Shown here: piece after piece, positions 3,001 to 24,000 of the stretch
Numbering within the stretch: position 1 is the first letter of the stretch
Layout: every line of letters begins with the position of its first letter
DNA from: Pseudodesulfovibrio sp. zrk46
GTDB taxonomy: Bacteria; Desulfobacterota; Desulfovibrionia; Desulfovibrionales; Desulfovibrionaceae
NCBI RefSeq assembly: GCF_012516435.1
Contig: NZ_CP051216.1
Location: 2,765,669 to 2,789,668, forward strand
Length of the DNA stretch: 24,000 bases
Reading direction: 5' to 3'
The notes under the pieces: generated by a model
What the model was told of the DNA's origin: nothing
Databases searched by the model: none
The model's input: only the letters and a program-made list of their open reading frames with translations
Translations under genes and position numbers: made by a program

Positions 3001-3314
3001 CCGTCATCGGAAGTGACCACAAAGGTCTCGGTGAGTGTCTCGCCAGCGCCGAGCTGCTGCACTTCGGTGGCGGTGTTGTCGACGTTGTAGGTCCAGTTGC
3101 CGTCAGTGGTGATGGACAGTGCGCCGACCTTGCCGGTGTTGTCTACGGTGGTGGAGAAGACATCTTCGCCATCGTCCGCGTCGGAGATGGAGAGCTTGCC
3201 AGAGTCTGTCAGAGTGACAGCCTGATCGGCAATGCCTTCGGCCAGCTCGGTGACTGCGCCGGTGTCGGAATCGGTACCACCCACGGAGATGACCGCCGTG
3301 TCGTTGGTGCCGGT
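1..3314. repeat. Tandem array, 654-bp period (218 codons = two VCBS-type modules per unit); at least 5 units plus a 44-bp partial; continues past the left edge
   Basis: The same 85-aa shadow ORF recurs at 217, 871, 1525, 2179 and 2833 (spacing exactly 654). Units 1-654, 655-1308, 1309-1962, 1963-2616 and 2617-3270 are near-identical by eye. Positions 1-44 equal 3271-3314. Variant blocks lie around 2547-2606 and 3201-3222. Confidence 0.95.
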
Positions 3315-8032: not shown

Positions 8033-8632
8033 CTATTTGGATTTTTTTGTGTTTTTATAATGTGCGGCAAGTCTGTCTTGCGCCGGATTGTGGATAAGGT
8101 TTTCAAGGTTGGTGTATCGTTCGGTCATTCGGGGATCATTGTGTCCGATCATGGCTGCTGCATGCTTCGTTGAACTGCCAGAGAGTACAATATTGGTGCA
8201 GTATGTGTGGCGCTGAACATGGAAGGTAATCTTTTTGTTGAATCCGCATGCCTTTCGAATGGTTCTCCAAGCATTATTGACATCCTTAAATCCAGTACCA
8301 TCGAGTCGGCCGATAACATATTCGTCTCTGACTTTGATTCCACGTTTCTTTCGCATCTTTTCAACGTGTGCTTTTCGATTGAGTAAAGCCTCTCTTGTTC
8401 GAAGCATTATCGCGTGAATTCTGTCATGCTTGTTTTTGGTGCGAAAGAAGCTGATCGGCCTTGTTTCTTGAAAGTTCAGATCGATATGGGGTCATTTGAG
8501 GTTAAGTGCCTCTTGGCGAGCACAACCATGCGCGACGGCGATCATAATTGCCAAAAACATGTAATGGCGTGTTTTCTGATTAGCAGCATGTTCAAGCATG
8601 TTCTCGACTTCGCTGTCGGACCCTGTCTCTAA
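8033..8632 (-). pseudogene. Tyrosine recombinase (phage-type integrase) remnant: N-terminally truncated, in-frame TGA
   Basis: The C-terminal catalytic region is intact in the 124-aa ORF (HVQRHTYCTN..., IGHNDPRMTERYTNL). Upstream in the same frame it reads SEVENMLEHAANQKTRHYMFLAIMIAVAHGCARQEALNLK-stop(8494..8492)-PHIDLNF, where integrases normally have LKW.dIDL. There is no N-terminal SAM-like domain. Confidence 0.8.
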
Positions 8633-9068: not shown

Positions 9069-10046
9069 GTGAGTTCCAAAGAAAAGGTATCTAAGTCTGA
9101 TGCAAAAGGTCAAAGATCGCTTGAAAGAAGTGTTTTAGAGGGAATTAACAATATTTTTCTTCAGGCTTTGACAGGCAATGATGAGGAAGAGTTGGCAAAG
9201 CTCTGCCTTCATACTTTGGAGAAGATAACGAACAGTGACTACGGCTTTATTGGAGAAATAAATCCTGTTGGTCGGTTCGATACAATTGCTGTGAGTAATC
9301 CGGGATGGGATGCGTGCGGTATCGATAGTTCCAAAGCTGGTTTACTGATTACAGATATGGATATTTCCGGGATTTGGGGAAAAGTCCTTAAAGATGGAAA
9401 ATCATTGCTTACTAATGCTCCGAGCAAGCATCCATCAAGCTCAGGGCTCCCTCCGGAGCACCCTCCTTTAAATGCTTTTCTAGGCGTCCCCATGAAGCAA
9501 GGTGAATTAACTATTGGTATGATTTCACTGGCAAAAAAGAAGGGGCGATTTACAAAGAAAGATCAGGAAGCTGTTGAGTCGTTGGCCGTGGCTGTGAACC
9601 AAGCTCTTCACAGCAAACAAACCGAGAACAAATTGGCCGCTCAGGCACAAGAAATATTGGAGCTATCTACACCTGTCCTAAAGATCTGGGAGGGAATTGT
9701 AATAGCACCTTTGATCGGCAGTTTGGACAGTGAACGAACACGGCAGTTTATGGATCTCATCTTGTCGAGCATTGAGACCACCAATTCTTCCGTTGCATTG
9801 ATAGATATTACCGGTGTTCCAATTCTGGATACGCAAACTGCGCAGCATATCATTGATACGATCGGAGCCTCTCGTCTCTTGGGAGCAGAAGTCATTCTCA
9901 CAGGAGTTAGACCAGAAATAGCTAAGACGTTGGTGCATCTGGGGATCGACTTGTCTGAGGTGATTACGAGAGCTTCTCTTTCTGCGGGAATACGTGTGGG
10001 TTTGAAAAGGCTTGGCCTCGAAGTGCAGAGTATTCAGAGTCAGTAG
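9069..10046 (+). CDS. rsbR: RsbR-like stressosome protein, GAF-type N-terminal sensor + C-terminal STAS
   Basis: GTG start with AGAGGAGG 6 nt upstream. The N-terminal half (ITNSDYGFIGEINP...PPEHPPLNAFLGVPMKQGELTIGMISLAKKKGRFTKKD) reads as GAF. The C-terminus (STPVLKIWEGIVIAPLIGSLDSERT...IDITGVPILDTQTAQH...GAEVILTGVRPEIAKTLVHLGIDL) reads as RsbR-type STAS. Confidence 0.85.
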   Translation: MSSKEKVSKSDAKGQRSLERSVLEGINNIFLQALTGNDEEELAKLCLHTLEKITNSDYGFIGEINPVGRFDTIAVSNPGWDACGIDSSKAGLLITDMDISGIWGKVLKDGKSLLTNAPSKHPSSSGLPPEHPPLNAFLGVPMKQGELTIGMISLAKKKGRFTKKDQEAVESLAVAVNQALHSKQTENKLAAQAQEILELSTPVLKIWEGIVIAPLIGSLDSERTRQFMDLILSSIETTNSSVALIDITGVPILDTQTAQHIIDTIGASRLLGAEVILTGVRPEIAKTLVHLGIDLSEVITRASLSAGIRVGLKRLGLEVQSIQSQ

Positions 10047-10081
10047 TTTCTAACTTATATTTCTATTTCTAGGAGCGTGTT

Positions 10082-11038
10082 ATGCAAATGTCGTTTTCCG
10101 AAACCCTAGCTCTCGATCGGCATCAAAAATTGCTGGAGGCCTTTTGTAAGGCTACCGGAATTGCCGGCGCCATCATTGATTTGGATGGGAATGTCATGGT
10201 GGGAGCCCAGTGGCAAAGAATTTGTACTGATTTTCATCGCAAAAACGAAGAGACATGCAAAAAGTGCATTGAATCCGATGTGATTTTAGCCAATCGACTT
10301 TCCAAGGATAAGAAATACACACTTTATGAGTGCAAGAATGGATTGATCGACGCCGCTGCCCCAATCATCGTTGAGGGAGAACATGTCGCCAATGCGTTTA
10401 TCGGACAGTTTCTTACCGCTCCCCCTGATAAAGATAAATTTCGTGCCTTTGCTCGAAAATATGGCTTTGACTCAAAGGATTACTTGAAAGCGCTAAAGCA
10501 TGTTCCAATCGTAGAAAAAAAGCGACTGCCTGATTTAACTAACTTCGTAAAATTATTTGCTGAAGTTGTTTCGGAATCCTACCTCGAACAAAGAGTTCAG
10601 AAGGAACAGGCAAAGGAGTTAGAAAAAAAGACCCAAGCTATTCAGGATTTATCAACTCCTGTTGTGAGAGTGTGGGACGGCATTGTGGCTGCCCCGCTTA
10701 TCGGTTTGATGGACGGGGAACGCGCCGAACTACTCATGGAACGTTTTCTGGGGGCTATCGTGGAAACCAAGTCTCCCTTAGCGTTATTGGATATCACTGG
10801 TGTTCCGGATGTAGACACACAATCCGCACAATACTTCATAGATGCGGTTAATGCAGCAAACATGGTTGGCGCAGAAGTTATTCTGACCGGTGTGAGTCCA
10901 TCGATAGCGCAAACTCTCATTCAACTTGGAATTGGCCTCAAAGGAATCAAGACCAGAAATTCCTTTGCTGACGGTTTGCGATTGGCTCTCTCCTTACAAC
11001 AGAAGGAAAAAGCAGTTTTGTTGAGTGAGGGGGTCTAG
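10082..11038 (+). CDS. rsbR: RsbR-like stressosome protein, PocR-type N-terminal sensor + C-terminal STAS
   Basis: AGGAG lies 6 nt upstream. The N-terminal FCKATGIAGAIIDLDGNVM...WQRICTDFHRKNEETCKKCIESD...YECKNGLIDAAAPIIVEGEHVANAFIGQF fits the PocR pattern. The C-terminus STPVVRVWDGIVAAPLIGLMDGERA...LDITGVPDVDTQSAQY...GAEVILTGVSPSIAQTLIQLGIGL reads as STAS. Confidence 0.8.
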   Translation: MQMSFSETLALDRHQKLLEAFCKATGIAGAIIDLDGNVMVGAQWQRICTDFHRKNEETCKKCIESDVILANRLSKDKKYTLYECKNGLIDAAAPIIVEGEHVANAFIGQFLTAPPDKDKFRAFARKYGFDSKDYLKALKHVPIVEKKRLPDLTNFVKLFAEVVSESYLEQRVQKEQAKELEKKTQAIQDLSTPVVRVWDGIVAAPLIGLMDGERAELLMERFLGAIVETKSPLALLDITGVPDVDTQSAQYFIDAVNAANMVGAEVILTGVSPSIAQTLIQLGIGLKGIKTRNSFADGLRLALSLQQKEKAVLLSEGV

Positions 11039-11039
11039 A

Positions 11040-11417
11040 ATGAATACAGCAACAGTTTCAATTGTTCGGATTAAAGGAGTGCTGCTTGTCACCTTGCCTC
11101 AAGATCCGCAAGATATGGTAATTGCGGAATTGCAAGATAACATCCTGAATCGGATGAGTGAACAGGATACGAAAGGTGTGATCCTCGATTTGTCCCAAGT
11201 AAGTACTCTGGATTCTTATTTTGCCAGAACGATTATTGAAACAGGCCAAATGGTCTCTCTAATGGGAGGTACTACGATTTTGGCCGGTATGCAGGTCGGT
11301 GTTGCTATTACGGCAACACAGCTTGGGTTGACTCTTGGTGCCATGCGTACGGCACTTGAAGTCGATAAGGCTCTCGATATGCTTAATAGTACAACCTCGG
11401 TCTCTTCGGAGGAATAA
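11040..11417 (+). CDS. rsbS: RsbS-like single-STAS stressosome scaffold protein
   Basis: I prefer ATG 11040 (GAGGGGG upstream, 1 nt after the previous stop) over the track start at 11025. 125 aa. GVILDLSQVSTLDSYFARTIIETGQMVSLMGGTTILAGMQVGVAITATQLG aligns with B. subtilis RsbS, including the phospho-Ser context (iDSFiak). Confidence 0.85.
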   Translation: MNTATVSIVRIKGVLLVTLPQDPQDMVIAELQDNILNRMSEQDTKGVILDLSQVSTLDSYFARTIIETGQMVSLMGGTTILAGMQVGVAITATQLGLTLGAMRTALEVDKALDMLNSTTSVSSEE

Positions 11418-11866
11418 TGTCTATAGATAATTTCCAAGACTATTCCGGTAAGATCGCAATTACTTCTGAAGTCGATATTGTCGCTGTGCGCAAAGAGATT
11501 CGGTCTGCCTGCCAACGCCTTGGATTTAATGACACAGACGTTACTCGTATAGTCACGGCGGCTTCCGAGTTAGCAAGAAATATTTATAAGTATGCGTCTC
11601 AAGGCAACATGCACTGGAAAAAGCTCAATCAAATAGGAAGAATTGGTGTTGAGTTGCTGTTTGAGGATAGGGGGCCTGGAATTAGGGATATTGACCTAGC
11701 AATGTCCCCAGGATTTACAACCTCTAGGGGGTTAGGGCTCGGTCTTCCTGGTGCTAAAAGGCTTATGGATGAGATAGATGTTGAGTCGACTCCAGGTGTC
11801 GGTACGAATGTTGTTATTCGTAAGTGGCTAAAAGGAAGAATAGTCTCTTCGCCGCAAGCTGCTTAG
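11417..11866 (+). CDS. rsbT: RsbT-like serine kinase / switch protein (HATPase_c_2)
   Basis: TAATG overlap with rsbS and GGAGGA RBS. VDIVAVRKEIRSACQRLGFNDTDVTRIVTAASELARNIYKYA...FEDRGPGIRDI...GFTTSRGLGLGLPGAKRLMDE closely parallels B. subtilis RsbT. Confidence 0.88.
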   Translation: MSIDNFQDYSGKIAITSEVDIVAVRKEIRSACQRLGFNDTDVTRIVTAASELARNIYKYASQGNMHWKKLNQIGRIGVELLFEDRGPGIRDIDLAMSPGFTTSRGLGLGLPGAKRLMDEIDVESTPGVGTNVVIRKWLKGRIVSSPQAA

Positions 11867-11887
11867 CTTTCTACAAGGAATCTTGTT

Positions 11888-12940
11888 GTGTCTATGGATC
11901 GTACTTGCCCCAAAACTGAACACGTAATTGTTGAGAATTCGGCCGACGTGCACTGGGCTGTTAGCAAAGTAAAAAAGATTGCTCGAGAGATTGGTTTCGA
12001 TGCGACTGAACAAGAGGAACTGGTGGTGTGCGCCAAGGAGTTGGCGATGAACATGGTTCTTCATGCCGAAGGTGGAATCTTAAGTATCAGAGTCAAATGT
12101 GAACTCATGGATTGGGAGATTGAATTTACTGCAAAAGATAATGGGCCAGGACTTAGAAGTATTGATGAAGCTATCGCTGATGGGCTCTCTTCTCGAGGCG
12201 GGCTTGGAATCGGACTTGGCACACTGAACAGATTCATGGATTCATTGGATTTGTTGCCAGTCCCAGAGGGTCAGTCTGGTACCAGGATACGATGTACTAG
12301 AAAGCTGAAGAAACGAGAACGATACGCTGTTTCAGGCCCTTTGGATGTTGGAGTCGCAAGTAGGCCATGCCCAGGCTTCAACCTTAATGGTGACAGCTAT
12401 GTAGTGCGCATAATTGATAACAGGCTGATGGTTTGCGTTATCGATGGGTTGGGGCATGGACAGTTCGCGCATAAGGCTGCAAGTGCGGCCCAAAAGTATG
12501 TCGAAGATCATGTCCATTTGGAGATAGAAGCACTGTTTAAAGGCGTGGACAGAAGTTGCAGGGCTACACGTGGTGTCGTTATGGCCCTGGCATTAATTGA
12601 TTGGGAACGGAACAGTATCTCCTTGGCCGGTGTCGGAAATATTGAAGTGAGATATCGTGGAAGCAATCCAGGCTTTTCCTATGTTTTCAAGAGGGGCTTT
12701 TTGGGGGCAGGTGTTGGACGAGTTTCCATCTCTGAACATGTATGGGAAGCAAATGATCTTCTTATAATGCACTCAGATGGGATCTCCAGCAAATGGAGTT
12801 TGGAAGATGATCCGACCATAAGTCTGCTCTCGGCAAAACAGATGGCATTAGCGCTTCTTAGGAATTATGGAAGAGATAATGATGATGCCACAATTCTCAT
12901 AGTTAAAAAGGCAGACGGAGCAGATACAACAAAACGTTAA
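11888..12940 (+). CDS. Fusion protein: RsbT/RsbW-like ATPase domain + PP2C (SpoIIE-type, RsbX-like) serine phosphatase
   Basis: GTG 11888 (AAGGAA 7 nt upstream); ATG 11894 is an alternative. The N-terminal ~135 aa carry an N-box (ELAMNMVLHA) and G-boxes (DNGPGL, GGLGIGLG). The C-terminal region carries PP2C motifs (NGDSYVV, VIDGLGHG, MHSDGI, DDATILIV). Confidence 0.85.
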   Translation: MSMDRTCPKTEHVIVENSADVHWAVSKVKKIAREIGFDATEQEELVVCAKELAMNMVLHAEGGILSIRVKCELMDWEIEFTAKDNGPGLRSIDEAIADGLSSRGGLGIGLGTLNRFMDSLDLLPVPEGQSGTRIRCTRKLKKRERYAVSGPLDVGVASRPCPGFNLNGDSYVVRIIDNRLMVCVIDGLGHGQFAHKAASAAQKYVEDHVHLEIEALFKGVDRSCRATRGVVMALALIDWERNSISLAGVGNIEVRYRGSNPGFSYVFKRGFLGAGVGRVSISEHVWEANDLLIMHSDGISSKWSLEDDPTISLLSAKQMALALLRNYGRDNDDATILIVKKADGADTTKR

Positions 12941-12958
12941 GCTCGAGAAGGATTCGAT

Positions 12959-15022
12959 ATGTCAGTTGGAAATTCGGCCAGCAGCCATTCAGAACTCTCG
13001 CGGTTGAAAAGAGAGCTCAATGAGGTGCATGAAGAATTGGCAAAAACCAACTCTGAATTGCTGCAATTGACATTAGAGCTAGACGATAGGGTCAACGAAC
13101 GTACAAAGGAGTTAAGAGAATCCGAGTCTGAACTCCGCATGCATCGTGACCATTTGGAAGACTTGGTCAAGGAGAGAACGATAGAGTTGAATGATGCAAA
13201 TCAGAGGCTATCGGTTTCCCTAAATGAACTTAAAGTCTCTGAAGAGCGTTATCATAGTTTGGTCAAAACAATTCCTGATGTTGTTTATCAAGTCTCTCCA
13301 TCTGGGCATTTTACCTTCGTAAACGAGGCCGTTGCTAGGCTTGGCTATACTCAGGAAGAATTAATTGGTGAGCATTTCAAGACTCTTTTCTATCCTATTG
13401 AGAGCAAAAGTATTTCAAGAGAGGGGATACTTGAGGAAACTGAACTTTTAGAGAGACAAGATGACTATAGTCCCAAGATAGTCGATGAGCGTCGTACAGG
13501 TGCTCGTATGACTTGTGGACTCGTTGTTGGACTAAAATCAAAGGATAGTAGTTCTGTCCAGCCAGCAGAATTAATAGGGCTATCCGGTGATGATGTTATC
13601 GCTGAGATAAATGCTGCTGGGCTTTATCGGGGCAGTAGTGGAACAGTGACAAGGACCTTTATCGGCACTGTTGGAGTAGTTCGTGACATCACAGAAAGAA
13701 AAAAGATGGAGAAGCAACTTTCTGAAATAAATGAAGAGTTGGAGATGAAAGTTGAGGTTCGCACAAGGGAGCTCAATGCTTCGAATGAGCATCTACTGAC
13801 TGAAATTGCTGAACGAAAAAAAGTCAGTGAACATTTGGCTGAATCAGAAAAGATCTTAAGGGCGGTTTTGAATGGAATGGGAGCTGGAGTTTTCTTTGTA
13901 GATCCTGCAAATTATTCTATTATATATGTTAATACAACTGGCCAGAAGATGCTTGATATGACGCGCCCTGAAATATTGGGCAGAAAATGTTGTGATCTCA
14001 TATGTCCTGGTAAGAAAGCGGTACCGGGTAAAAAGTGTAGTATTTATATGACCAAGATGCTGAATAAAGAACAGCAATTGTCTTTACCTGACGGTACTGT
14101 CATTCCAGTTATGAAGCATGTTCTTCCTTTGCGGATAAAGGATCAAAACATTCATGTCGAAATCATTTTTGATGTGACAGAGAAGAAATCTCTGGAACGA
14201 CAGTTAGCTTATGCCCAAAAGCTAGAGTCCGTGGGGCAATTGGCCGCTGGAATTGCGCATGAAATCAACACTCCGATTCAGTACATTGGCGGCAATGTTA
14301 CCTTTTTGAAGTCCGTTATCGAAAGTTTTGCGAATTGCATGGAAAAGTACGAAGACTTGAGCAGTGCGGTTGTTGAGGAACAAGATGTTGTCAAAGTCGC
14401 TTCAGAACTAGTTAACTTAGTGGATAAGGTTGCTTTGATAGATGATATTACTGAGTCAAAGGCAGCCATTGATGACATTCTTGAAGGAGTCGGACGCGTT
14501 TCCACTATAGTTACTGCAATGAAGAAGTTCTCACACCCTGACCTTGAGGACCGTAAAGCCATTGATGTGAATGCGGCCATTGAGAACACCATTATTGTCG
14601 CTCGAAACGAGTGGAAATATTGTTCGGAGATTGAGACGGAATATTCTCAGGATTTGCCATTGCTGATGTTTGTCCCTGGAGATTTGAATCAGGCTATCTT
14701 GAATATTATCGTTAATGCAGCCCATGCCAACGCTTCAAAGTGCTCAGATTGCGGTGAAAAAGGGATTATAAGAATTTCTACCAAACATGAAGATGACACG
14801 ATTGCCATATCTATTATGGATACGGGAATAGGAATTGCCCCCGAGAACTATGGGAAAATATTTGACCCCTTCTTCACAACCAAAGACGTCGGCTACGGTA
14901 CAGGGCAAGGCTTGGCTATAACGCACGCTGTTATTCAGAAGCATGGTGGCGAAATTGCATTTGAATCGGAGTTGGGGGTTGGTACAACATTTACCCTTAA
15001 ACTACCGATTGAAGCTGAGTAG
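12959..15022 (+). CDS. Soluble sensor histidine kinase: long N-terminal coiled coil, PAS domains (the last has a Cys cluster), HisKA, HATPase
   Basis: 687 aa with no hydrophobic TM segment. ERTxEL-type coiled-coil linkers. H-box [23 protein letters not shown]-box ILNIIVNAAHA. G-boxes DTGIGI and GTGQGLAI. Starts 18 nt after the phosphatase gene with GAAGGA upstream. Confidence 0.9.
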   Translation: MSVGNSASSHSELSRLKRELNEVHEELAKTNSELLQLTLELDDRVNERTKELRESESELRMHRDHLEDLVKERTIELNDANQRLSVSLNELKVSEERYHSLVKTIPDVVYQVSPSGHFTFVNEAVARLGYTQEELIGEHFKTLFYPIESKSISREGILEETELLERQDDYSPKIVDERRTGARMTCGLVVGLKSKDSSSVQPAELIGLSGDDVIAEINAAGLYRGSSGTVTRTFIGTVGVVRDITERKKMEKQLSEINEELEMKVEVRTRELNASNEHLLTEIAERKKVSEHLAESEKILRAVLNGMGAGVFFVDPANYSIIYVNTTGQKMLDMTRPEILGRKCCDLICPGKKAVPGKKCSIYMTKMLNKEQQLSLPDGTVIPVMKHVLPLRIKDQNIHVEIIFDVTEKKSLERQLAYAQKLESVGQLAAGIAHEINTPIQYIGGNVTFLKSVIESFANCMEKYEDLSSAVVEEQDVVKVASELVNLVDKVALIDDITESKAAIDDILEGVGRVSTIVTAMKKFSHPDLEDRKAIDVNAAIENTIIVARNEWKYCSEIETEYSQDLPLLMFVPGDLNQAILNIIVNAAHANASKCSDCGEKGIIRISTKHEDDTIAISIMDTGIGIAPENYGKIFDPFFTTKDVGYGTGQGLAITHAVIQKHGGEIAFESELGVGTTFTLKLPIEAE

Positions 15023-15611: not shown

Positions 15612-18179
15612 ATGATCTGGAAAAAACGGCGATTCATATACTTAGTACTTATAATGGTAGCTTTGGTGGTAGCTGTATCTTTTTTTAACAGCTACTACAT
15701 GTATCAAATGTCCATCTCTGAGCAGCGGGCCCGTCTATCTGAATTGGTGGGTGTCCAAAAAAATGTCATCGCGGAAATAGGTGTGCGCTTATGGGCATCC
15801 ACAGATATAGATGAGCATGGAGTTATCGATCTTCTCGTGCGTTCCCACTCGCTTTTCATGGAGAAAGATTCCAAAGTAGAATTCATAGTTGCAAAACGTG
15901 AAGGAGGCTTCATAAGCTTCCTAAGTCTAAATGGCAAAGCTGTGCCCTCCGATAGCCCGATGGCTAAAATCCCTTTTGACTCAGGTTTAGCCATACCTAT
16001 GAAGCATGCCCTTTTACGACAAGTGGGAACAATTATTGCCGACGACTATGACACCACTGAAGTTTTGGCTGCTTATAACTACGTAACATTAAGAAATACT
16101 ACTCTGGGTATTGTTGCAAAGGTTGATTTAGAAGAAGTCAAAGCGCCTTTTATGGAGGCAAACATAATCGTTTTGGGAGTTGGTAGTTTTCTTACTTTGA
16201 TCGGAGTTTGGCTGTTCTTGAGGATAAGCGAGCCGATCATAAGAGCCCTTCAGCAAAGTGAGCAGCAATATCGTGGGCTGGTTGAGAATGCTGATAGTTT
16301 GATTATTCGAATCGACAGTAATGGTAATATTACTTACGCGAATAACTATGCTCAAAATTATTTTGCAGTTGATTCAGTCGTTGGAATCCCGATGTATCAG
16401 TTGTTTGAAGAAGAGGTGAGCACTCCTTCGATTTTTGGAATAGCTGAATTTTTATCAGAAAGGACCAGCCTTAATCCTACTCAAATTGCCAAGAGTAAAA
16501 ATGAGTTTGCTTATGTCTCGTGGACTGTGAAGTTGTTTGAATCACAAACTCCCGAGTTGCTGTGTATTGGTATTGATGTGACCAATGAGCATCTTGCTCG
16601 CCAAGCACAGAAAGAATCGCAGGAACGATTCAGGGCTCTGGCAAAAGCTGCACCAGTAGGAATTGTCATTACAGATCTGATGGGCAATCTAATGTATGCA
16701 AATGAGAAGATGCAGGAACTTACACGGGCTTCTACCGTTGAGCTTGCTGGGGTTGGCTGGCTCCAGTTTATTGAAAGAGGCCTGAGGGATGAAATCATTC
16801 GAGAATGGTTTACTCAAAATAATATTAAGCAGCGTTATGAGTTCCAATTGACGAACCTAAAAGGGGATGAACTGTGGATTCTTGGTCAGATCGTTGATTT
16901 GGAGAATGCACATAGTGAGACTGTCGGAAAGTTGGTAGCCCTCACTGACATCACCCGGATAAAAGAGGCTGATGTTGCCCGTAGTCGTCTCACTGCGGCT
17001 ATCGAACAGGCTGCAGAAATGATCATAATCACCGATCTTGATGGAACAATCTCATATGTCAATCCCGCTTTTGAACAGGTTTCGGGTTATAGCAAGGAAG
17101 AAGTTTTAGGAAAGAATCCACGAATCCTTAATAGTGGTGAGCACAAGAGAGATTTTTATATTGGGTTATGGGAAACACTTGTTGCTGATGAAATCTGGAC
17201 TGGTAGGTTTATTAATAGGCGGAAAAATGGCGAACGTTACACCCAAGAGTCAACTATTGGCCCAGTTAAGAACGACAACGGAGAACGAATCGGCTATGTC
17301 GGAGTAGCCCGAGATATTTCTGAGCAACTCGTTATTGAAGCCCGCTTACGCCAATCTCAGAAACTCGAGTCAATAGGGGAACTCGCAGCCGGAATTGCTC
17401 ATGAAATCAATACTCCCACTCAGTATGTTACAAGTAACTTGCAGTTTTTTGAGGATTCATTCGCGAAATATTCAGGGATGATCGAAAAGACTCAAAAGTT
17501 GATACTACTTATTAAAAATAGAGAGTTGGGCGGAAGCGAATCAGAAATTCTTGAGTATGCTGAAAAGATTATTGATGATCAGGAAGTGGAGTTCCTCAAG
17601 GAAGACCTCCCCAATGCACTGCAAGAGTCAGAGTCAGGGTTGAAGCGTATTTCGGAGATCGTACAATCGATCAAGCAACTGGCGCATCCTGGCGAAGTCA
17701 AAAAGAGCTTTTGGAGCTTAAATGAGATAGTTAGAGACGCCGTTACAGTCGCGACCAACGAGTGGAAGTATTCTGCAATTATCAATTATGATTTAGATGA
17801 ACAATTAGATCACATTTATTGCCTCAAAGCAGAGGTCGGACAAGTAATCTTAAATGTAGTCGTTAATGCAGCCCACGCGATTGAAGCGGTTCGAGATATT
17901 GACGATGAACTGGGCTCTATCTCAATAAAAACCTATTCCGAAAGAGATTTAGCTGTGTTGGAAATATCAGATACAGGATCTGGTATCCCAGAGGAACTAC
18001 TCGATAGAATCTTTGACCCGTTCTTTACAACTAAGGAGGTTGGTAAGGGGACTGGGCAAGGGTTGGCGATAGCTCATAATGTCGTGACGAACCTTCACAA
18101 CGGAAGTATTGAAGTCTTGAGCACCGTGGGTGAAGGAAGTACTTTTGTCATCAAGCTTCCTTTTGAAGATAAAGACTAA
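15612..18179 (+). CDS. Membrane sensor histidine kinase: TM, ~155-aa extracytoplasmic Cache-like domain, TM, three PAS-like regions, HisKA, HATPase
   Basis: 855 aa. TM1 is [18 protein letters not shown] and TM2 is [20 protein letters not shown]-box [23 protein letters not shown]-box [12 protein letters not shown]-boxes DTGSGI and GTGQGLAI. Confidence 0.9.
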
Positions 18180-19189
18180 AATGCTTCTTCAGAGTATATG
18201 TTCTCTTCCTGGAGTATGGAAATCCCTGATTCTGCGCATTGAACATCAAAACAAGATCCTTTCATTTCATTGAGAAAACGAATGGCCTCATTTGCTCCAA
18301 GAATTTTGCGATATGGTCTGTGGGTCATTATAGCATCAATAACATCAGCGACAGAAAGAATTTTCGATTCAATTAATATGCTCTCTTTGGTGATGCCATT
18401 GGGGTAGCCTGAACCGTCAAGGCGTTCATGGTGCTCGACGATTATCCTGGATATTGGCCATTCCGTATCCAAGGTCTGGAATATGTCCGCTCCGACAAGA
18501 GGATGAGCTTTAATCAGCGCAAATTCTGCATCGTTTAGTGTGCCAGGCTTATTTAGAATACCTGCCGGTACGGCTATCTTACCAATATCATGAACTCGGG
18601 CAGCCAGTTCCAATCCATGTATTTTTTCTTCGGGCAAGTTTATTCTTTCAGCTATCAAAACAGCTAATTTTGAGGTCCGTTCCATGTGCCCTGCGGTATA
18701 GGGGTCTCGGAATTCAACTAGACGGGTAAAAGCCTGAAGGGTTCCTTCCAGACCATCGTTTAAACGGCGCATAATTGCTAGTTCTTGAGAGGCCTGGGTC
18801 ATCTTGAACTGGTCTATGCCTGCAATGATTGCATTGGTAAGGTCTTCAATAGCACAGGGCTTTGTAAGAAAACGGAAGATATCACCTCGGTTGACGACAC
18901 TGATTGCCATTTCCAGGTCAGCATAACCTGTCAGGACCATACGAATCGTTGACGGATAAAGCTCCTTGATTTTTCCTAGCAGTTCAATACCGCTCATGGT
19001 TGGCATTTTAATATCGGTTACAGCGACAACGAAAGGTCCTTCTTTCTCTAGTTTTTCGAGGGCCGCTTCACCACCTAAGGCCGTATGCACATCGAATACA
19101 TTGCGCAACAATCTGCGATGACTATCCAGAAGGTTGGCTTCATCGTCGACCATGAGCACTTTGTGTCGGGAATAATCTTTATTCATCAT
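18176..19189 (-). CDS. Response regulator with HD-GYP output domain (RpfG-type c-di-GMP phosphodiesterase)
   Basis: 337 aa. REC motifs: VDDE, VTDIKMP, LTGY, FLTKPC. HD-GYP motifs all present: TAGHMERT, VHDIGK, KAHP, EHHERLDGSGYP. Confidence 0.9.
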   Translation of the reverse strand: MMNKDYSRHKVLMVDDEANLLDSHRRLLRNVFDVHTALGGEAALEKLEKEGPFVVAVTDIKMPTMSGIELLGKIKELYPSTIRMVLTGYADLEMAISVVNRGDIFRFLTKPCAIEDLTNAIIAGIDQFKMTQASQELAIMRRLNDGLEGTLQAFTRLVEFRDPYTAGHMERTSKLAVLIAERINLPEEKIHGLELAARVHDIGKIAVPAGILNKPGTLNDAEFALIKAHPLVGADIFQTLDTEWPISRIIVEHHERLDGSGYPNGITKESILIESKILSVADVIDAIMTHRPYRKILGANEAIRFLNEMKGSCFDVQCAESGISILQEENIYSEEAF

Positions 19190-19194
19190 TGTTA

Positions 19195-20334
19195 CTAACC
19201 TGGTACGAGTACTTCTAATTTTTCAGGCACACCGACTTGTTTAGCAAATAAGTGTATCCGATCAATTTTGTCTTTATCTAGCTCCAAGCTTTTTCTGAGC
19301 AGCATGGCGCCTTGATCAGAAATGATGTCTTGATGAAGAATCATCCCTGGGTTCAGATCAGCCAGTGCAACCATCTTAGTTTCATATCTGGCCTCATTGC
19401 CGAGCATTCCCTCGAGATAATATATTAACTCCGGGTCATATACTTCAATATTCTTTTCCAAACTCATGAAGGCTTTTTGGGGGGATTTATTCTTTTGGAG
19501 TGCCACATCATAATCCAAGGCAATTTTCAAAATACGCCCGCCAAGAGGAATGCTATCTCCCTTCTTGTTGTCTCGAGGTGTGCCAGAACCATCATATCCC
19601 TTGAGCTGATATGCGATCATTTCTGCAATCGACTCAAGCCGCGGCAGCTTCTGGATCATGCTTTGGGCAATGACAGGGTGCATTTCAAACATTTGCAGTT
19701 GTTCTGGTGTTATTTCCTTTCCGTTGAAGATGTCATCCAACGTGCCCGGCGGCAGGATCAGAGTGCCAAATTGAGAAAGCATCGTTGCGATGTCATAACG
19801 CCATAAATCTTTGACCCCTTTTTTCTCGGCGAGATATCTTACATAGCGGCGTACTCTGTTGACCTGTTCTCCAGCAACCGGGTTCACCAGTGACGTTATT
19901 TCGCCAAGGAGTTCTATACTGCCTTTGAGAGTTTTCTCCATTAAGACTTTTTTTGCCGTAACCAAATCAAATTGACGAACGCCTTCTACTACATGTTTGC
20001 GAAGATCCTCTTTCTCACATGGCTTGGTTAAAAAACGGAAAACATTCCCGTCATTCACAGCGTGGATGGCATTATTCAGATCGGCGTATCCTGTGAGCAT
20101 AAGCCGGGTGGTGTCGGGTGAAAGTTCCTTGACCTCTTTAAGGAATTCAATGCCATTCATTTTGGGCATTCTGAAGTCAGATACTACCGCTGCAAATGGG
20201 TGTTTTTTGTCTATATTTGCCAGCGCATTTAAAGGGTCTGTGTCTATTTCGACTTCGAATAAATCCCTTAGCTGTCTCCTTAGCGCAGACAGCACATTGG
20301 GTTCATCGTCCACTAAGAGGATTCGCTGTTTCAT
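19195..20334 (-). CDS. Response regulator with degenerate (pseudo-)HD-GYP domain and an extra C-terminal domain
   Basis: 379 aa. REC is intact (VDDE, VSDFRMP, LTGY, FLTKPC). Aligned to the neighbouring HD-GYP domain: GH->GE, HD->SQ (MLSQFG), HHE->YQL, GYP->GTP (YQLKGYDGSGTP). ATGA overlap with the upstream gene. Confidence 0.85.
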   Translation of the reverse strand: MKQRILLVDDEPNVLSALRRQLRDLFEVEIDTDPLNALANIDKKHPFAAVVSDFRMPKMNGIEFLKEVKELSPDTTRLMLTGYADLNNAIHAVNDGNVFRFLTKPCEKEDLRKHVVEGVRQFDLVTAKKVLMEKTLKGSIELLGEITSLVNPVAGEQVNRVRRYVRYLAEKKGVKDLWRYDIATMLSQFGTLILPPGTLDDIFNGKEITPEQLQMFEMHPVIAQSMIQKLPRLESIAEMIAYQLKGYDGSGTPRDNKKGDSIPLGGRILKIALDYDVALQKNKSPQKAFMSLEKNIEVYDPELIYYLEGMLGNEARYETKMVALADLNPGMILHQDIISDQGAMLLRKSLELDKDKIDRIHLFAKQVGVPEKLEVLVPG

Positions 20335-21590
20335 TTAACACCTCTGCCAATGGACTGCATGAAAATATCAATGTTTTCAGCCGGGATGCACTCCCAATAG
20401 TCCCATTTCTTTTTAAGGTAAGCGATCCACTTGGTCCGTTTCGCTTTGTCGACAAGGCCTTCCAGTTCCTCGTTAATTTTAGTCTTCCTATACTTTTCGT
20501 TTATAATGACGCAGTTATGATCGAAAACATCTGCAACGTGCGCTATTACTGAAACTTGATCATCTGGATTGACCTTATGATGATGGTGCCCGATGCCGTA
20601 GACCAGTCTGCCGGATAGTCCCCAAAGGCCCATTAGGTATGCGCCTACTTCGGCATGTGATGTGCCAAATGTCTCCTTCTCTGCTTCGAAGATGAGCTTG
20701 TTGGTTCCATTAATATCGTTCAGCATTTGCTTGTACTGTTCCGGGAAACTACTGATAAGGACAAGCTTTCCAACGTCATGTAGCAGCCCGGTCATACGAC
20801 ACTGTGCGATAGTGTCTCTGTCAAGTCCTTCGCACTCTGCAATCAACTGAGCGATAGTGGACACTCTGAAACAATGTTCCCAAAGAAGGGTGATGCTTAG
20901 TTCGGGAAGCTTCTTCTCGTCATATAGGGAGAACATATGGGTGGAGAGAACCAGCGCTTTAATAGTGTCCAGTCCAAGCATGGTTATAGCTTTATGAACG
21001 GAGTCTACGTTTGAAGGAAGTCCGAAATAGGGAGAGTTCACAAGCTTGAGGACTTTGGCAACAAAGCCAACATCACGTGAGATATGTTCCGCTATTTTAT
21101 CAATAGATGGTTCTTTTTGAGCCAATTCACTTTCTATGTCATGGAAAACTTGTGGAATTACGGGCAATGCATCAAGTTTGGTAACAAGCTCTAGAAGGTT
21201 TTGGTCCGTAAGAACAGATCGGGAGTGCAGTGCCCCCTCGATCTTTTCGATGAGTTCGTCGGATTCACATGGTTTGGAGATGTATTGATGCACAGCCTTG
21301 ATGCTACGGATAACTTCGTTAAGGTCCACCTGTCCCGAAAGCGCAATACGAATAGTGGTAGGCGATAGTGACTTAACCCGGCTGAGGAGATCTGCTCCGT
21401 CCATCCCGGGCATGCGTATGTCTGAAACCACAACATCAAATTCAGCATGTTCCATCGCCTCAAGAGCCTTTTGGCCGGATTCAACAAAGGTCATGTCCCA
21501 TTCATTATGCTTTGACCTGAGCATACGCTTCAGCGCAGAAAGAACATTAGGTTCATCGTCTACAAACATGATTTGAGTTTTGTCGCTCAT
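20331..21590 (-). CDS. Response regulator with HDOD output domain
   Basis: 419 aa. REC motifs: VDDE, VSDIRMP, LSGQ, YISKPC. HDOD-like region: ISRDVGFVAKVLKLVNSPYFGLPSNVDSVHKAITMLGLDTIKALVLS...GLLHDVGKLVL...HAEVGAYLMGLWGL. TAATG overlap with the upstream kinase gene. Confidence 0.85.
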   Translation of the reverse strand: MSDKTQIMFVDDEPNVLSALKRMLRSKHNEWDMTFVESGQKALEAMEHAEFDVVVSDIRMPGMDGADLLSRVKSLSPTTIRIALSGQVDLNEVIRSIKAVHQYISKPCESDELIEKIEGALHSRSVLTDQNLLELVTKLDALPVIPQVFHDIESELAQKEPSIDKIAEHISRDVGFVAKVLKLVNSPYFGLPSNVDSVHKAITMLGLDTIKALVLSTHMFSLYDEKKLPELSITLLWEHCFRVSTIAQLIAECEGLDRDTIAQCRMTGLLHDVGKLVLISSFPEQYKQMLNDINGTNKLIFEAEKETFGTSHAEVGAYLMGLWGLSGRLVYGIGHHHHKVNPDDQVSVIAHVADVFDHNCVIINEKYRKTKINEELEGLVDKAKRTKWIAYLKKKWDYWECIPAENIDIFMQSIGRGVK

Positions 21591-23686
21591 TAGTCCCTCT
21601 CATCAGGATTTATCGGCAACACTATCGTGAAGCGAGTGCCGACATTGAGATCACTTGTGACTTCTATGGTACCATTATGTTTTGTAATAATCGAATAACA
21701 AATGCTTAAACCTTGACCGCTACCTTGCCCGACATCCTTTGTGGTGAAAAAGGGATCAAAGATTCTTTCTTGAATCTCTTTTGGGATGCCGATTCCATTG
21801 TCTTCTATGGATATGGTGACATTGTCTCCATCTTCCGAGGTAGATATGGAGATTGTCCCTTTCTCTGTTGTGTCTTTAAAGCGATCTTTAACTGCATGAA
21901 CTGCATTTATGATTAAATTAAGAAACGCTTGGCTAATATCGTGAGAATTACAGCGTACTTGAGGTAAGCCTTCCATTAGATCAAGGTTTAAATCTGCAGT
22001 GTATTTCCATTCGTTTTTTGAAACGATAGAAAGATTTTGAAGGATTGCATTCAAGTTGTTCCATTCAAACAGATCCAGTCCCGGATGAGACAATTTTTTT
22101 AAGGCTTGAACTGTCGTCGTAATGCTCTCAACCCCTTCAAGGGATTGTTCGAGGGCTTGAGGAACTTCCTCATTGTAAAAATCGATATCCTCAAAGGATA
22201 AGGAGGGGTGGGCCTCTGGATTAGCCTTTTGTGCCCAGCATGCAATACAAGTTTCAAAGGCCTTTTGAATGAATCTCAGATTGTCAGTGATGTATTGAGC
22301 TGGAGTGTTGATTTCGTGTGCTATTCCTGCAGCCAGACTGCCAATGCTTTCGAGTTTGAGAGCGTGTGCAAGCTGTCTTTCGATGTTCTTTCGTTCGGAA
22401 ATATCGAAGATGACTGCGACGAAATGGGGTTTGTCATTAATCTCCAATTCGAGCACTGTCTTAGAGATTGGTACCGAGGTTTCATCTTTGCGCTTCAACT
22501 CAAATTCTGCGTTCAATAGCTTTTTCCCAATGGCTGGGCATCCTTTCTTTGGAAATTGATCACCATACCTGCAAATGTATTCATAGCAGGGCTTGCCGGT
22601 AAGCTCCGAAGGCGAAACCCTTAGAATTTTGCCAGCAACGTTGCTGGCTCTTGTTATGATGAAACGTTCCATGTCTATGAATAGCACTCCTGCTTCAATA
22701 CCATCGAGTATGCTTTCTAGTACTTTCTGGTTCTTGATGAGTTGTAGTTCATCATAATGTTTTGTTTGAATATTCCTAATTAAATAGAAGAGAATCATGG
22801 CCAGCAGAATTAGTGAAGCAGATCCTCCAAGGATCCACCAGCGTATAGCCAATACAGGTTTCAACAATCTATTGTAATCCAGAGACAATACGATATGCCA
22901 CTTAATGGGAATATTCGTATTAGCCAAATGAGTTTGAACAACGATAATTTCGTTATTGCCATTTATCTTGTCTTGAAAAACTCCATTGATGTTCTTGTTG
23001 GAAAATTTATTTTTTAAAAAAGTGTTTATAGAAAAAGGCTTGTATAAGGACGTGGAGTAGAGTGTCTCCCAATGATCAGTGAGAAGTTCCAGTTTATTGA
23101 TGTGATACTCATCTAGAGTGTGACCAATTTTTCGAATAAGCGAAGAGGAATGGCAGATAGCAGTCAGGACAACCGGATCGCTACTTGGGTTATCAATTCG
23201 CATTGAAATGCGAAGCATCGAGCGACCACGAGAGTCTTTAAAAAAATCCATAGATCTACCTGTCTCAAGTGTAGTTGACCACCAATCTTCCTTACAGCAA
23301 TCCTGTTTTTCTGATTCTGTGGAGGCGAGTATCTTTCCATCCTTATTGGCGAGAAAAACCTCTTCATAAAATCTCTGGCCGAAATTGTTTTCAAAGAAGT
23401 CAATAAATCTGGAGGAAAGCATGGGGTTATCTACCTGCTGCCACCATGCCCCAGTGTGTATTTGTGCGTCTGACTGTAAGGTGGCTATGAATAAGCCCAA
23501 GTCTTCTTGATAAAAGGAAATATTGCTTTGTATCATCCCTTGGATATGCTTCCCCCAGAATTCTCCATCTTCGAATAGTTGATCTTGGAAAGCATTGTAG
23601 GTCCGATGGTACACCACCCCTGTCACACTAAGCAGCAGTATGGCGAATCCAGTCAGTAAGATGATTACTTTGGTATTGATGCGCAT
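21590..23686 (-). CDS. Membrane sensor histidine kinase: TM, ~260-aa extracytoplasmic (double-Cache-like) domain, TM, Cys-triad PAS, HisKA, HATPase
   Basis: 698 aa. TM1 is VIILLTGFAILLLSVTGVVY and TM2 is WWILGGSASLILLAMILFYLI. H-box [23 protein letters not shown]-box FLNLIINAVHA. G-boxes DNGIGI and GSGQGLSI. Confidence 0.9.
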   Translation of the reverse strand: MRINTKVIILLTGFAILLLSVTGVVYHRTYNAFQDQLFEDGEFWGKHIQGMIQSNISFYQEDLGLFIATLQSDAQIHTGAWWQQVDNPMLSSRFIDFFENNFGQRFYEEVFLANKDGKILASTESEKQDCCKEDWWSTTLETGRSMDFFKDSRGRSMLRISMRIDNPSSDPVVLTAICHSSSLIRKIGHTLDEYHINKLELLTDHWETLYSTSLYKPFSINTFLKNKFSNKNINGVFQDKINGNNEIIVVQTHLANTNIPIKWHIVLSLDYNRLLKPVLAIRWWILGGSASLILLAMILFYLIRNIQTKHYDELQLIKNQKVLESILDGIEAGVLFIDMERFIITRASNVAGKILRVSPSELTGKPCYEYICRYGDQFPKKGCPAIGKKLLNAEFELKRKDETSVPISKTVLELEINDKPHFVAVIFDISERKNIERQLAHALKLESIGSLAAGIAHEINTPAQYITDNLRFIQKAFETCIACWAQKANPEAHPSLSFEDIDFYNEEVPQALEQSLEGVESITTTVQALKKLSHPGLDLFEWNNLNAILQNLSIVSKNEWKYTADLNLDLMEGLPQVRCNSHDISQAFLNLIINAVHAVKDRFKDTTEKGTISISTSEDGDNVTISIEDNGIGIPKEIQERIFDPFFTTKDVGQGSGQGLSICYSIITKHNGTIEVTSDLNVGTRFTIVLPINPDERD

Positions 23687-23687
23687 A

Positions 23688-24000
23688 TTACCGCCTGAAG
23701 AATTCGAGTTTGCCGTTTTTCATTTGAGCCGGGCGTAAAGGGAAATGGAAATGATGAGAATTGGGTTGGCTTTCGACATCACCGAATAACCCTGGATAAA
23801 CAAATCCCCTCTCCATAAATTCAACTATATCCTGTGGCTTCGTTCCTTTTGCTTTGAAGATGTCATACAGAAGCATGATGCTGTCGTAGCCTATTGTAGA
23901 ATACACATCCACGGGACTGTCGTACTGTTGAACAAAATCAACGCGTAATTGTTTCATTTGTCGAGATGTTACATTGTAAATTAATGGGGCCGGGATATAA
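23688..24000 (-). CDS. Periplasmic binding protein, type 1 (Leu/Ile/Val-binding-protein-like), C-terminal part; the 5' end is beyond the right edge
   Basis: The frame is open upstream of the track's Met out to position 24000 (YIPAPLIYNVTSRQMKQLRVDF...). The pattern YSTIGYDSIMLLYDIFKAKGTKPQDIVEFM is typical of the C-terminal lobe of LivK-type SBPs. Its stop TAA (23690..23688) lies 1 nt before the kinase ATG. Confidence 0.55.
   Translation of the reverse strand, partial: YIPAPLIYNVTSRQMKQLRVDFVQQYDSPVDVYSTIGYDSIMLLYDIFKAKGTKPQDIVEFMERGFVYPGLFGDVESQPNSHHFHFPLRPAQMKNGKLEFFRR

Follow-up and report, generated by a model that had tools for sequence, protein, structure and literature searches.

A predicted branched two-component network with HD-superfamily outputs in Pseudodesulfovibrio sp. 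zrk46

Gene content of the locus

The subject of this study is a five-gene cluster on the minus strand of a 24,000-nucleotide stretch of the genome of Pseudodesulfovibrio sp. zrk46 (contig NZ_CP051216.1, positions 2,765,669 to 2,789,668), the whole of which is referred to below as the window. The cluster encodes a solute-binding protein, a sensor histidine kinase (K1) and three response regulators, proteins 1 to 3, in which a receiver (REC) domain is joined to an HD-GYP domain, a degenerate HD-GYP domain and an HDOD domain, respectively. Two more histidine kinases, K2 and K3, are encoded on the plus strand without regulators of their own, the window in all harbouring three kinases of one family and three regulators. 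Proteins 2 and 3 match proteins of the zrk46 genome at 100% identity; an exact-sequence look-up of protein 2 returned no record. The genes are the following.

23688..24000, minus strand: 3' end of a periplasmic solute-binding protein gene (LivK/Peripla_BP_6 type), encoding the C-terminal 103 amino acids (aa); the gene runs past the window edge
21590..23686, minus strand: sensor histidine kinase K1, 698 aa, called from its open reading frame (ORF) and Pfam
20331..21590, minus strand: response regulator REC-HDOD (protein 3), 419 aa; REC at nucleotides (nt) 21216-21590, HDOD at about nt 20511-21167
19195..20334, minus strand: protein 2, REC with a degenerate HD-GYP domain and a small C-terminal beta/alpha domain, 379 aa; REC at nt 19960-20334, pseudo-HD-GYP at about nt 19420-19932, C-terminal domain at nt 19198-19389
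18176..19189, minus strand: protein 1, REC-HD-GYP, 337 aa; REC at about nt 18815-19168, HD-GYP at about nt 18230-18742
15612..18179, plus strand: convergent membrane PAS histidine kinase K2, 855 aa, His597
12959..15022, plus strand: cytoplasmic coiled-coil/PAS histidine kinase K3, 687 aa, His434

Because no junction between the five minus-strand genes exceeds 5 nt, they are assigned to one operon: running from the binding protein to protein 1, the spacings are +1, -1 (TAATG), -4 (ATGA) and +5 nt. The same gene order and the same four junctions had been given by an earlier reading made from the letters alone (hereafter the sequence-only reading), and they were matched exactly when re-derived from the ORF coordinates. 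A scan of the operon for promoter- and terminator-like sites was uninformative, with counts at or below shuffled expectation. The binding-protein fragment covers Pfam Peripla_BP_6 profile positions 246-342 of 343 (E 2e-5), and full-length orthologues of 370-371 aa are found directly upstream of the kinase in two related loci (L081 and L083, see below). Pfam detected no DNA-binding domain in any of the three regulators, the only matches being Response_reg, HDOD, HD_5 and HD, which bears out the earlier claim that a DNA-binding output is lacking.

Receiver and output domains

All three receivers retain the DD, phospho-Asp, T/S and K positions and carry closely similar tails (FLTKPC, FLTKPC and YISKPC), and the key positions are invariant or nearly so both in the protein 2 family and in 33 REC-HDOD orthologues. 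The description of three intact receivers with a shared (F/Y)(L/I)(T/S)KPC tail can therefore be upheld residue by residue. A KP(C) tail of this kind marks receivers of the HupR/RpfG-type subfamily and is not specific to this operon, the best matches in the PDB being 3kcn, 2jk1, 2rjn and 3hv2. The first of these, annotated as the receiver of an 'adenylate cyclase homolog', matches the receiver and linker of protein 2 at 121 bits, including the linker helix LVTxKxxLxxKTxxGxI, and may on this likeness be the receiver of an orthologue from the protein 2 family. The Cys that follows the receiver Lys-Pro is present in 32 of 33 REC-HDOD proteins, in 22 of 22 pseudo-HD-GYP proteins and in all three regulators of the window, and is replaced by Trp in HupR and in the NosR-like protein of Burkholderia. 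A redox role of this cysteine is possible.

Helix alpha-1 of the receiver is almost the same in proteins 2 and 3 (EPNVLSAL[R/K]R), while that of protein 1, ANLLDSHRRLLR, is unlike both. Across loci with two receivers, alpha-1 identity was 0.435 within a locus and 0.403 between loci (p = 0.013; p = 0.0004 for the whole REC domain), a slight excess that is weakly compatible with a shared kinase.

Protein 1 has the anatomy of the RpfG family. Pfam recovers Response_reg (70.6 bits), HD_5 and HD, and the receiver carries VDDE, D58, the T and the K of FLTKPC. Residue roles follow the summary of the PmGH structure given by Galperin and Chou and were mapped by family alignment; protein 1 matches PmGH (4mcw) at E 4.8e-35. 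The metal ligands are complete (H168, H200-D201, H229, H253-H254-E255 and D282), the GYP motif is G261-Y262-P263, and the contacts to cyclic di-GMP (c-di-GMP) are all in place (K214-P-G216 and R291-P-Y293-R294). The position of the third-metal ligand, Glu185 in PmGH, is occupied by Tyr164, which assigns protein 1 to the binuclear subtype. Protein 1 is thus predicted to be an active c-di-GMP phosphodiesterase of the binuclear type, the product of which may stop at pGpG.

The domain that follows the receiver of protein 2 is homologous in fold to HD-GYP, with a Response_reg and an HD_5 match (110 bits for the latter), no match to the HD model, and an AlphaFold2 model that is helical through aa 108-315 (pLDDT 88). 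Only one of seven metal ligands is kept (H219). The others are replaced (H by Q157, HD by S187-Q188, HHE by Q243-L244-K245 and D by L273), the GYP tyrosine has become T252, and the KPG and RxY[K/R] motifs are missing from the protein as well as from the family consensus; the metal-ligand and GYP residues and the c-di-GMP contacts of a catalytic HD-GYP domain are accordingly both wanting. The replacements S187, Q188, Q243, K245 and L273 are fixed in 22 family members with identities down to 44% and therefore represent an old, selected state and not decay. A pocket-like set of residues (H219, Q243, K245, D248, R267, D274 and D276) is conserved in the family, orthologues within the family are 65-84% identical, and many polar residues of the pseudo-active site are invariant.

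The C-terminal extension of protein 2, about 75 aa long, is likewise conserved, and AlphaFold2 models give it a beta/alpha fold (pLDDT 88 and 85). No Pfam family was found for it in 21 members even at E <= 10, no PDB sequence matched better than E 0.7, and a Foldseek search against the PDB returned nothing at E <= 0.001, the weak likenesses being to gephyrin/MoeA and to RNA polymerase beta-hybrid motifs. The fold is accordingly unclassified, and DUF3391 (PF11871) is at most a lead: none of the 21 members matches it at E <= 10, and the layout of secondary structure resembles the published description loosely. A profile built from the pseudo-HD-GYP and C-terminal domains recovered 2,378 clusters at 50% identity (E <= 1e-30), and most of the 150 best-scoring clusters have the architecture of protein 2 and a length of about 380 aa.

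It could be supposed that protein 2, protein 3 or both bind c-di-GMP or pGpG and so read the product of the neighbouring enzyme. Degenerate EAL, GGDEF and HD-GYP domains are said often to bind c-di-GMP, and the conserved pocket-like residues of protein 2 would suit a receptor. Yet every canonical contact has been lost in protein 2, namely KPG, RxY[K/R], the GYP tyrosine and the metals that hold the phosphates, and binding through the canonical site is for this reason unlikely. Most loci that harbour a protein 2 orthologue are without a co-encoded c-di-GMP enzyme, and the degenerate regulators HnoD of Shewanella oneidensis and NosR of Burkholderia are described as acting via protein partners. 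A receptor role of this kind, which had been among those suggested for the two regulators, is considered unlikely. On its residues, and with the NosR/HnoD type of partner-protein regulator as the better precedent, a role of protein 2 in modulating other proteins by direct contact is more likely than one in binding c-di-GMP.

Protein 3 presents a different picture. In addition to Response_reg, Pfam reports HDOD at 181.8 bits (threshold 22.9, aa 142-338) and HD at 41.5 bits, and among solved structures the nearest is that of a Geobacter HDOD protein, 3HC1 (E 1.4e-27), in which two Fe are held by five His and one Asp. The aligned residues of protein 3 (H239, H271, D272, H312, H336 and H337) make up the full set, and each of them is present in 29-33 of 33 REC-HDOD orthologues from related loci. 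As this complete ligand set is conserved, a degenerate label for protein 3 is unjustified, and the protein is predicted to be metal-competent, with a two-metal centre of the di-iron type. Of the two regulators that the sequence-only reading had taken for probably non-catalytic paralogues, protein 2 thus fits that description, with one ligand in seven and no substrate contact, and protein 3 does not.

Histidine kinases

K1 consists of a first transmembrane segment, a periplasmic dCache-like domain (about aa 28-282), a second transmembrane segment, a PAS domain, a DHp domain with the H-box AHEINTP (His457) and a catalytic domain; the two hydrophobic segments enclose about 255 periplasmic residues. 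The HATPase_c match is strong (94 bits) and those to PAS_9 and dCache_1 are weak (E ~1e-3), the orthologue in L081 having a confident dCache_1 match. Kinases next to the conserved module in other phyla are matched by the K1 core at more than 200 bits.

All three kinases of the window are class I histidine kinases by their motifs (AHEINTP, NAxHA, DxGxGI, FDPFFTTK and GxGQGL; HATPase_c 78-94 bits). They have the H-box AHEINTP in common, which fits the H-E-x-x-T kinase/phosphatase motif, and are 38-47% identical over the transmitter core, with K3 47% identical to the K1 core. K3 is a possible third input of uncertain membership.

Conservation of the module

The protein 2 family profile was scanned over one genome per species, 80 loci were returned, and their ORFs were typed against the window's own domains. 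A protein 2 orthologue was present in 47 loci, of which 37 were informative in having at least 1.4 kb on both sides. The loci come from phyla that include Desulfobacterota, Planctomycetota, Acidobacteriota, Gammaproteobacteria, Chloroflexota, Nitrospirota and Verrucomicrobiota. Among the informative loci, a REC-HDOD gene lies within 300 bp of the protein 2 orthologue in 26 and directly upstream on the same strand in 23, a kinase with the same H-box and catalytic core lies within 3 kb in 35, and an active-looking HD-GYP within 1.5 kb in only two. At most loci the match to protein 2 starts between a few nt inside and less than 20 nt past the end of the HDOD ORF (coordinates read by hand), and such near-overlapping starts imply translational coupling. 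In other phyla one kinase typically precedes the two regulators. The kinases are between about 400 and 1057 aa long, so that the sensor part is variable and the transmitter core conserved; extra kinases with the same core are frequent (L007, L011, L014, L024, L030, L031 and L046). The conserved unit is hence a kinase with REC-HDOD and REC-degenerate HD-GYP. To this unit the active HD-GYP has been added almost exclusively in the Desulfovibrionaceae.

These distributions bear on the view that only REC-HD-GYP has an output and that the other two regulators compete for phosphate and thereby shape the kinetics. Sink regulators are established in other branched systems, and the three receivers of the window are intact and alike on the surface that faces the kinase. 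However, 35 of 37 loci are without an active HD-GYP nearby and would have nothing to buffer. The output domains are moreover under strong purifying selection, as seen in the within-family identities and invariant pseudo-active-site residues given above, conservation of the C-terminal domain of protein 2 reaches to the Burkholderia NosR, and the HDOD metal ligands are kept. Phosphate sinks therefore seem quite unlikely as an account of proteins 2 and 3.

The same counts raise a possibility that is held more tentatively than the network proposed below. The pseudoenzyme could be the dedicated, phosphorylation-controlled partner of the HDOD metalloprotein in an ancient module, HDOD then being the real output, as a redox- or gas-sensitive switch or a nucleotide hydrolase, and the phosphodiesterase a late, lineage-specific addition.

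Eight loci of the Desulfovibrionaceae were compared: the window, L001 and L081-L086. The triad stands for the three regulators of the window.

Window: triad present; binding protein and Cache kinase present; convergent PAS kinase present
L083: triad present; binding protein and Cache kinase present; convergent PAS kinase present
L081: HD-GYP absent; binding protein and Cache kinase present; convergent PAS kinase present
L082: triad present; a PAS/GAF kinase in place of binding protein and Cache kinase; convergent PAS kinase present
L084 (P. mercurii ND132): triad present; no binding protein and Cache kinase; convergent PAS kinase present
L001: triad present; binding protein and Cache kinase not detected; convergent PAS kinase present
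L085: triad present; a same-strand Tll0287-PAS kinase downstream instead; no convergent PAS kinase
L086: HD-GYP without a receiver; no binding protein and Cache kinase; convergent kinase replaced by a dCache/PAS kinase

The triad is found in six of the eight (the window, L001, L082, L083, L084 and L085). Comparative genomics had been proposed as a check on it, and it holds up in this family, with the pair of HDOD and pseudo-HD-GYP extending beside a kinase of the same family into many phyla. A convergent PAS kinase of the K2 type is also found in six of eight loci, its stop codon overlapping or abutting the last regulator gene, and K2 is thus retained more often in the Desulfovibrionaceae than the operon's own K1. 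In the sequence-only reading a single kinase was thought to branch to the three regulators. The branching is kept here, as part of a network that we think probable as a whole. The single kinase is not, since K2 is so often retained, K1 and the binding protein are lineage-specific, and K2 and K3 share the core of K1.

It might be argued that three kinases and three regulators simply form three one-to-one pathways that happen to be clustered. The same-family kinases of the window do equal the regulators in number, with three of each, and the alpha-1 helix of protein 1 differs from those of proteins 2 and 3. But the triad of ND132 has one adjacent kinase, other phyla typically place one kinase before two regulators, proteins 2 and 3 barely differ in helix alpha-1, and K3 is not syntenic with the triad elsewhere. 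Insulated pairs are on this evidence improbable.

The stop codons of K2 (TAA, 18177-18179) and REC-HD-GYP (TAG, 18176-18178, minus strand) overlap, and the two ORFs share 4 nt, which leaves no space for terminators. Similar convergent overlaps of 4-19 nt are seen in L001, L082 and L083. This arrangement suggests read-through antisense transcription or interference between both units.

In four loci of Betaproteobacteria (L051, L052, L057 and L058) a stand-alone HDOD protein (~270-360 aa) is followed, in this order, by a kinase (~470-620 aa), a REC-HD-GYP protein (~445-600 aa by longest-ORF calls) and a small REC protein. A second kinase and a REC protein of 742-743 aa are added in L052, L057 and L058, whereas L051 has only a second kinase on the opposite strand. 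These loci provide another case of HDOD, HD-GYP and the same kinase family travelling together.

Proposed mechanism

We consider it probable, judging from domain and residue content, that the window encodes a multi-input branched two-component network without transcriptional output, in which the kinases set the phosphorylation of three receivers, protein 2 modulates a partner and protein 3 is a metal-dependent effector. Inputs would enter through K1, with its dCache domain and the adjacent binding protein, through K2 and perhaps through K3, and these kinases of one family would set the phosphorylation state of proteins 1, 2 and 3, the pairings of kinase and receiver being what we infer from the shared transmitter core and the conserved, coupled synteny. 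Protein 1 would hydrolyse c-di-GMP and lower its level, probably stopping at pGpG. Protein 2 would be a pseudoenzyme of the NosR/HnoD kind that binds and tunes a partner protein in dependence on phosphorylation; candidate partners are the HDOD regulator, as in the ancestral module, and the HD-GYP enzyme where present. Protein 3 would be a second real effector, its chemistry presumably relying on a di-iron type centre.

Several results weigh against this proposal. Among NCBIfam models NosR (NF053512) ranks first for each of the three regulators, but protein 2 scores 253.9 bits against it, below the cut-off of 400, and hence falls outside the NosR family. No FIST (NosP) or H-NOX gene is present among the scanned proteins of the window. 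K3 is not adjacent to the triad in the Desulfovibrionaceae relatives examined, the excess of within-locus receiver identity is small (0.435 against 0.403), and no fusion of HDOD with pseudo-HD-GYP was seen in nine unusually long or multi-stretch family members. The isolated fragment aa 230-412 of DVU0330, a REC-HDOD protein of D. vulgaris, had weak activity on bis-pNPP and was inactive on c-di-GMP, pGpG, c-di-AMP, cAMP and cGMP, this construct omitting the N-terminal half of the HDOD domain. With so little activity in the DVU0330 fragment, a catalytic role of HDOD is unproven. DVU0330 falls outside the 120 best hits of protein 3 and is at most a candidate orthologue.

The DVU0330 result also touches on the idea that the two metal-competent outputs act in succession, REC-HD-GYP converting c-di-GMP to pGpG and HDOD converting pGpG to GMP. 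The Tyr at the third-metal position of protein 1 is associated with stopping at pGpG, the HDOD two-metal site is kept, and a role of HDOD as a pGpG hydrolase has been speculated on in the literature. Against this stand the failure of the DVU0330 fragment to hydrolyse pGpG or c-di-GMP, albeit in a construct without half of its domain, and the finding that the pair of HDOD and pseudo-HD-GYP usually occurs without an active HD-GYP. Such a two-step pathway is very unlikely.

Other features of the window

The left edge of the window is occupied by a large adhesin gene, and a partner-switching, stressosome-like operon at 9069-15022 on the plus strand ends in K3.

3-4388, minus strand: cadherin-like repeat adhesin of at least 1462 aa with 11 Cadherin_4 domains and Big_9; N-terminus at 4388, the gene running off the left edge
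8033-8407, minus strand: ORF of 124 aa, probably a remnant, with a match confined to the C-terminal part of the phage integrase family
9069-10046, plus strand: GAF-STAS protein (partner-switching operon)
10082-11038, plus strand: PocR-STAS protein (partner-switching operon)
11025-11417, plus strand: STAS protein (partner-switching operon)
11417-11866, plus strand: RsbT/RsbW-like HATPase_c_2 kinase (partner-switching operon)
11888-12940, plus strand: HATPase_c_2-SpoIIE fusion (partner-switching operon)

The DNA of the adhesin gene has 61% G+C against about 43% in the rest of the window. Its repeats appear near-identical by eye in translation, with a period of more than 500 bases; Tandem Repeats Finder, which covers periods up to 500 bases, found nothing in the region. 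A plus-strand ORF at 372-3971 was rejected as a shadow of the minus-strand gene. The sequence-only reading had pointed to this adhesin, about 14 kb from the operon, as being of a class often controlled by c-di-GMP. The adhesin itself is real, and the functional link was rejected, as nothing beyond sharing the window speaks for it: an M48 peptidase, an SH3 protein, an acetyltransferase, the integrase fragment, the partner-switching operon and two kinases lie in between, and the window showed no gene resembling LapD or LapG.

The partner-switching operon could feed a stress signal to the triad regulators via K3. The adjacency of K3 and this operon to the triad was not seen in the relatives examined.

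Significance

Although HDOD domains are very abundant in the signalling proteins of bacteria, to our knowledge they have no assigned biochemical function. Few degenerate HD-GYP regulators are known; HnoD and NosR are examples, and PA2572 is a further one. By the present comparison, a metal-competent REC-HDOD and a NosR-like pseudo-HD-GYP regulator are in many phyla translationally coupled to each other and associated with one kinase family. The turnover of c-di-GMP may account for just one branch of such networks, added recently. The cluster first noted is confirmed, and the idea of branched, non-transcriptional outputs of the HD superfamily is sound. The main interest of the locus lies in the handle that it offers on HDOD function. 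Should the ancient module exist as outlined, it would be the first genetically and biochemically tractable context for that function. P. mercurii ND132 is described as genetically tractable, and with its triad and single neighbouring kinase it would be a practical test bed.

Comparison with known systems

NosR of Burkholderia combines REC with a degenerate HD-GYP domain (HG...GTP) and is phosphorylated by NosK, whose H-box is HEINN, under the control of the nitric oxide (NO) sensor NosP. Protein 2 (aa 5-377) aligns by BLASTP with the Burkholderia NosR-like protein of locus L047 at 28% identity (E 4e-48), the C-terminal domain included, and the L047 protein carries the motifs LLHGIGK and RGTP. 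GTP takes the place of GYP in both regulators, and HEINx is common to the H-boxes of NosK and the kinases of the window. NosR differs in that its HD motif retains the His and its HHE motif one of the two His, where protein 2 has SQ and YQ, and in its long coiled-coil linker. The Burkholderia locus L047 showed no HDOD partner. The analogy with NosR is one of mechanism and not of membership.

In Shewanella oneidensis the kinases HnoK and HnoS act on HnoB, HnoC and HnoD, and HnoD, a REC-degenerate HD-GYP protein, inhibits the EAL phosphodiesterase HnoB unless phosphorylated. The convergence of kinases (two in that case) on three regulators, one of them a c-di-GMP phosphodiesterase and one a degenerate HD-GYP protein, is the logic proposed here. 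The enzyme is REC-EAL in Shewanella and REC-HD-GYP in the window, and the third regulator is a transcription factor in the former, whereas it is REC-HDOD with no DNA-binding output in the latter. The sensors are also different, being the NO-binding H-NOX and NosP in Shewanella and a solute-binding protein with dCache, plus PAS, in Pseudodesulfovibrio. The likening of protein 2 to HnoD is by architecture and description.

Protein 1 has the architecture of the RpfG family (PA4781, TM0186, DVUA0086 and others) together with the full set of catalytic and substrate residues. RpfC, the partner of RpfG, is a hybrid kinase, unlike the kinase here, and protein 1 is one of three outputs and the least conserved of them outside the Desulfovibrionaceae. 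For protein 3, the counterpart in architecture and size is DVU0330, and the HD-type metal ligands are kept in DVU0330, 3HC1 and protein 3. GsmR (a REC-HDOD protein of Xanthomonas) and SadB (a YbaK-HDOD protein of Pseudomonas) are without these ligands, unlike protein 3, and SadB illustrates that an HDOD protein is able to act as an adaptor. Neither a pairing of DVU0330, GsmR, SadB or 3HC1 with a degenerate HD-GYP regulator nor the module of kinase, REC-HDOD and pseudo-HD-GYP was found described in the open-access papers and preprints searched.

On the input side, sensing of the LuxP/LuxQ type relies on a periplasmic binding protein that docks on a tandem-PAS/Cache kinase. The binding-protein gene of the window lies 1 nt upstream of that of a dCache-like kinase, and the pairing is kept in L081 and L083. 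The binding protein here is of a different class (Peripla_BP_6, LivK-like), and the putative pairing is missing from most relatives of the module. By these likenesses, the window appears closest in its working to the NosR and Hno networks, while being a member of neither.

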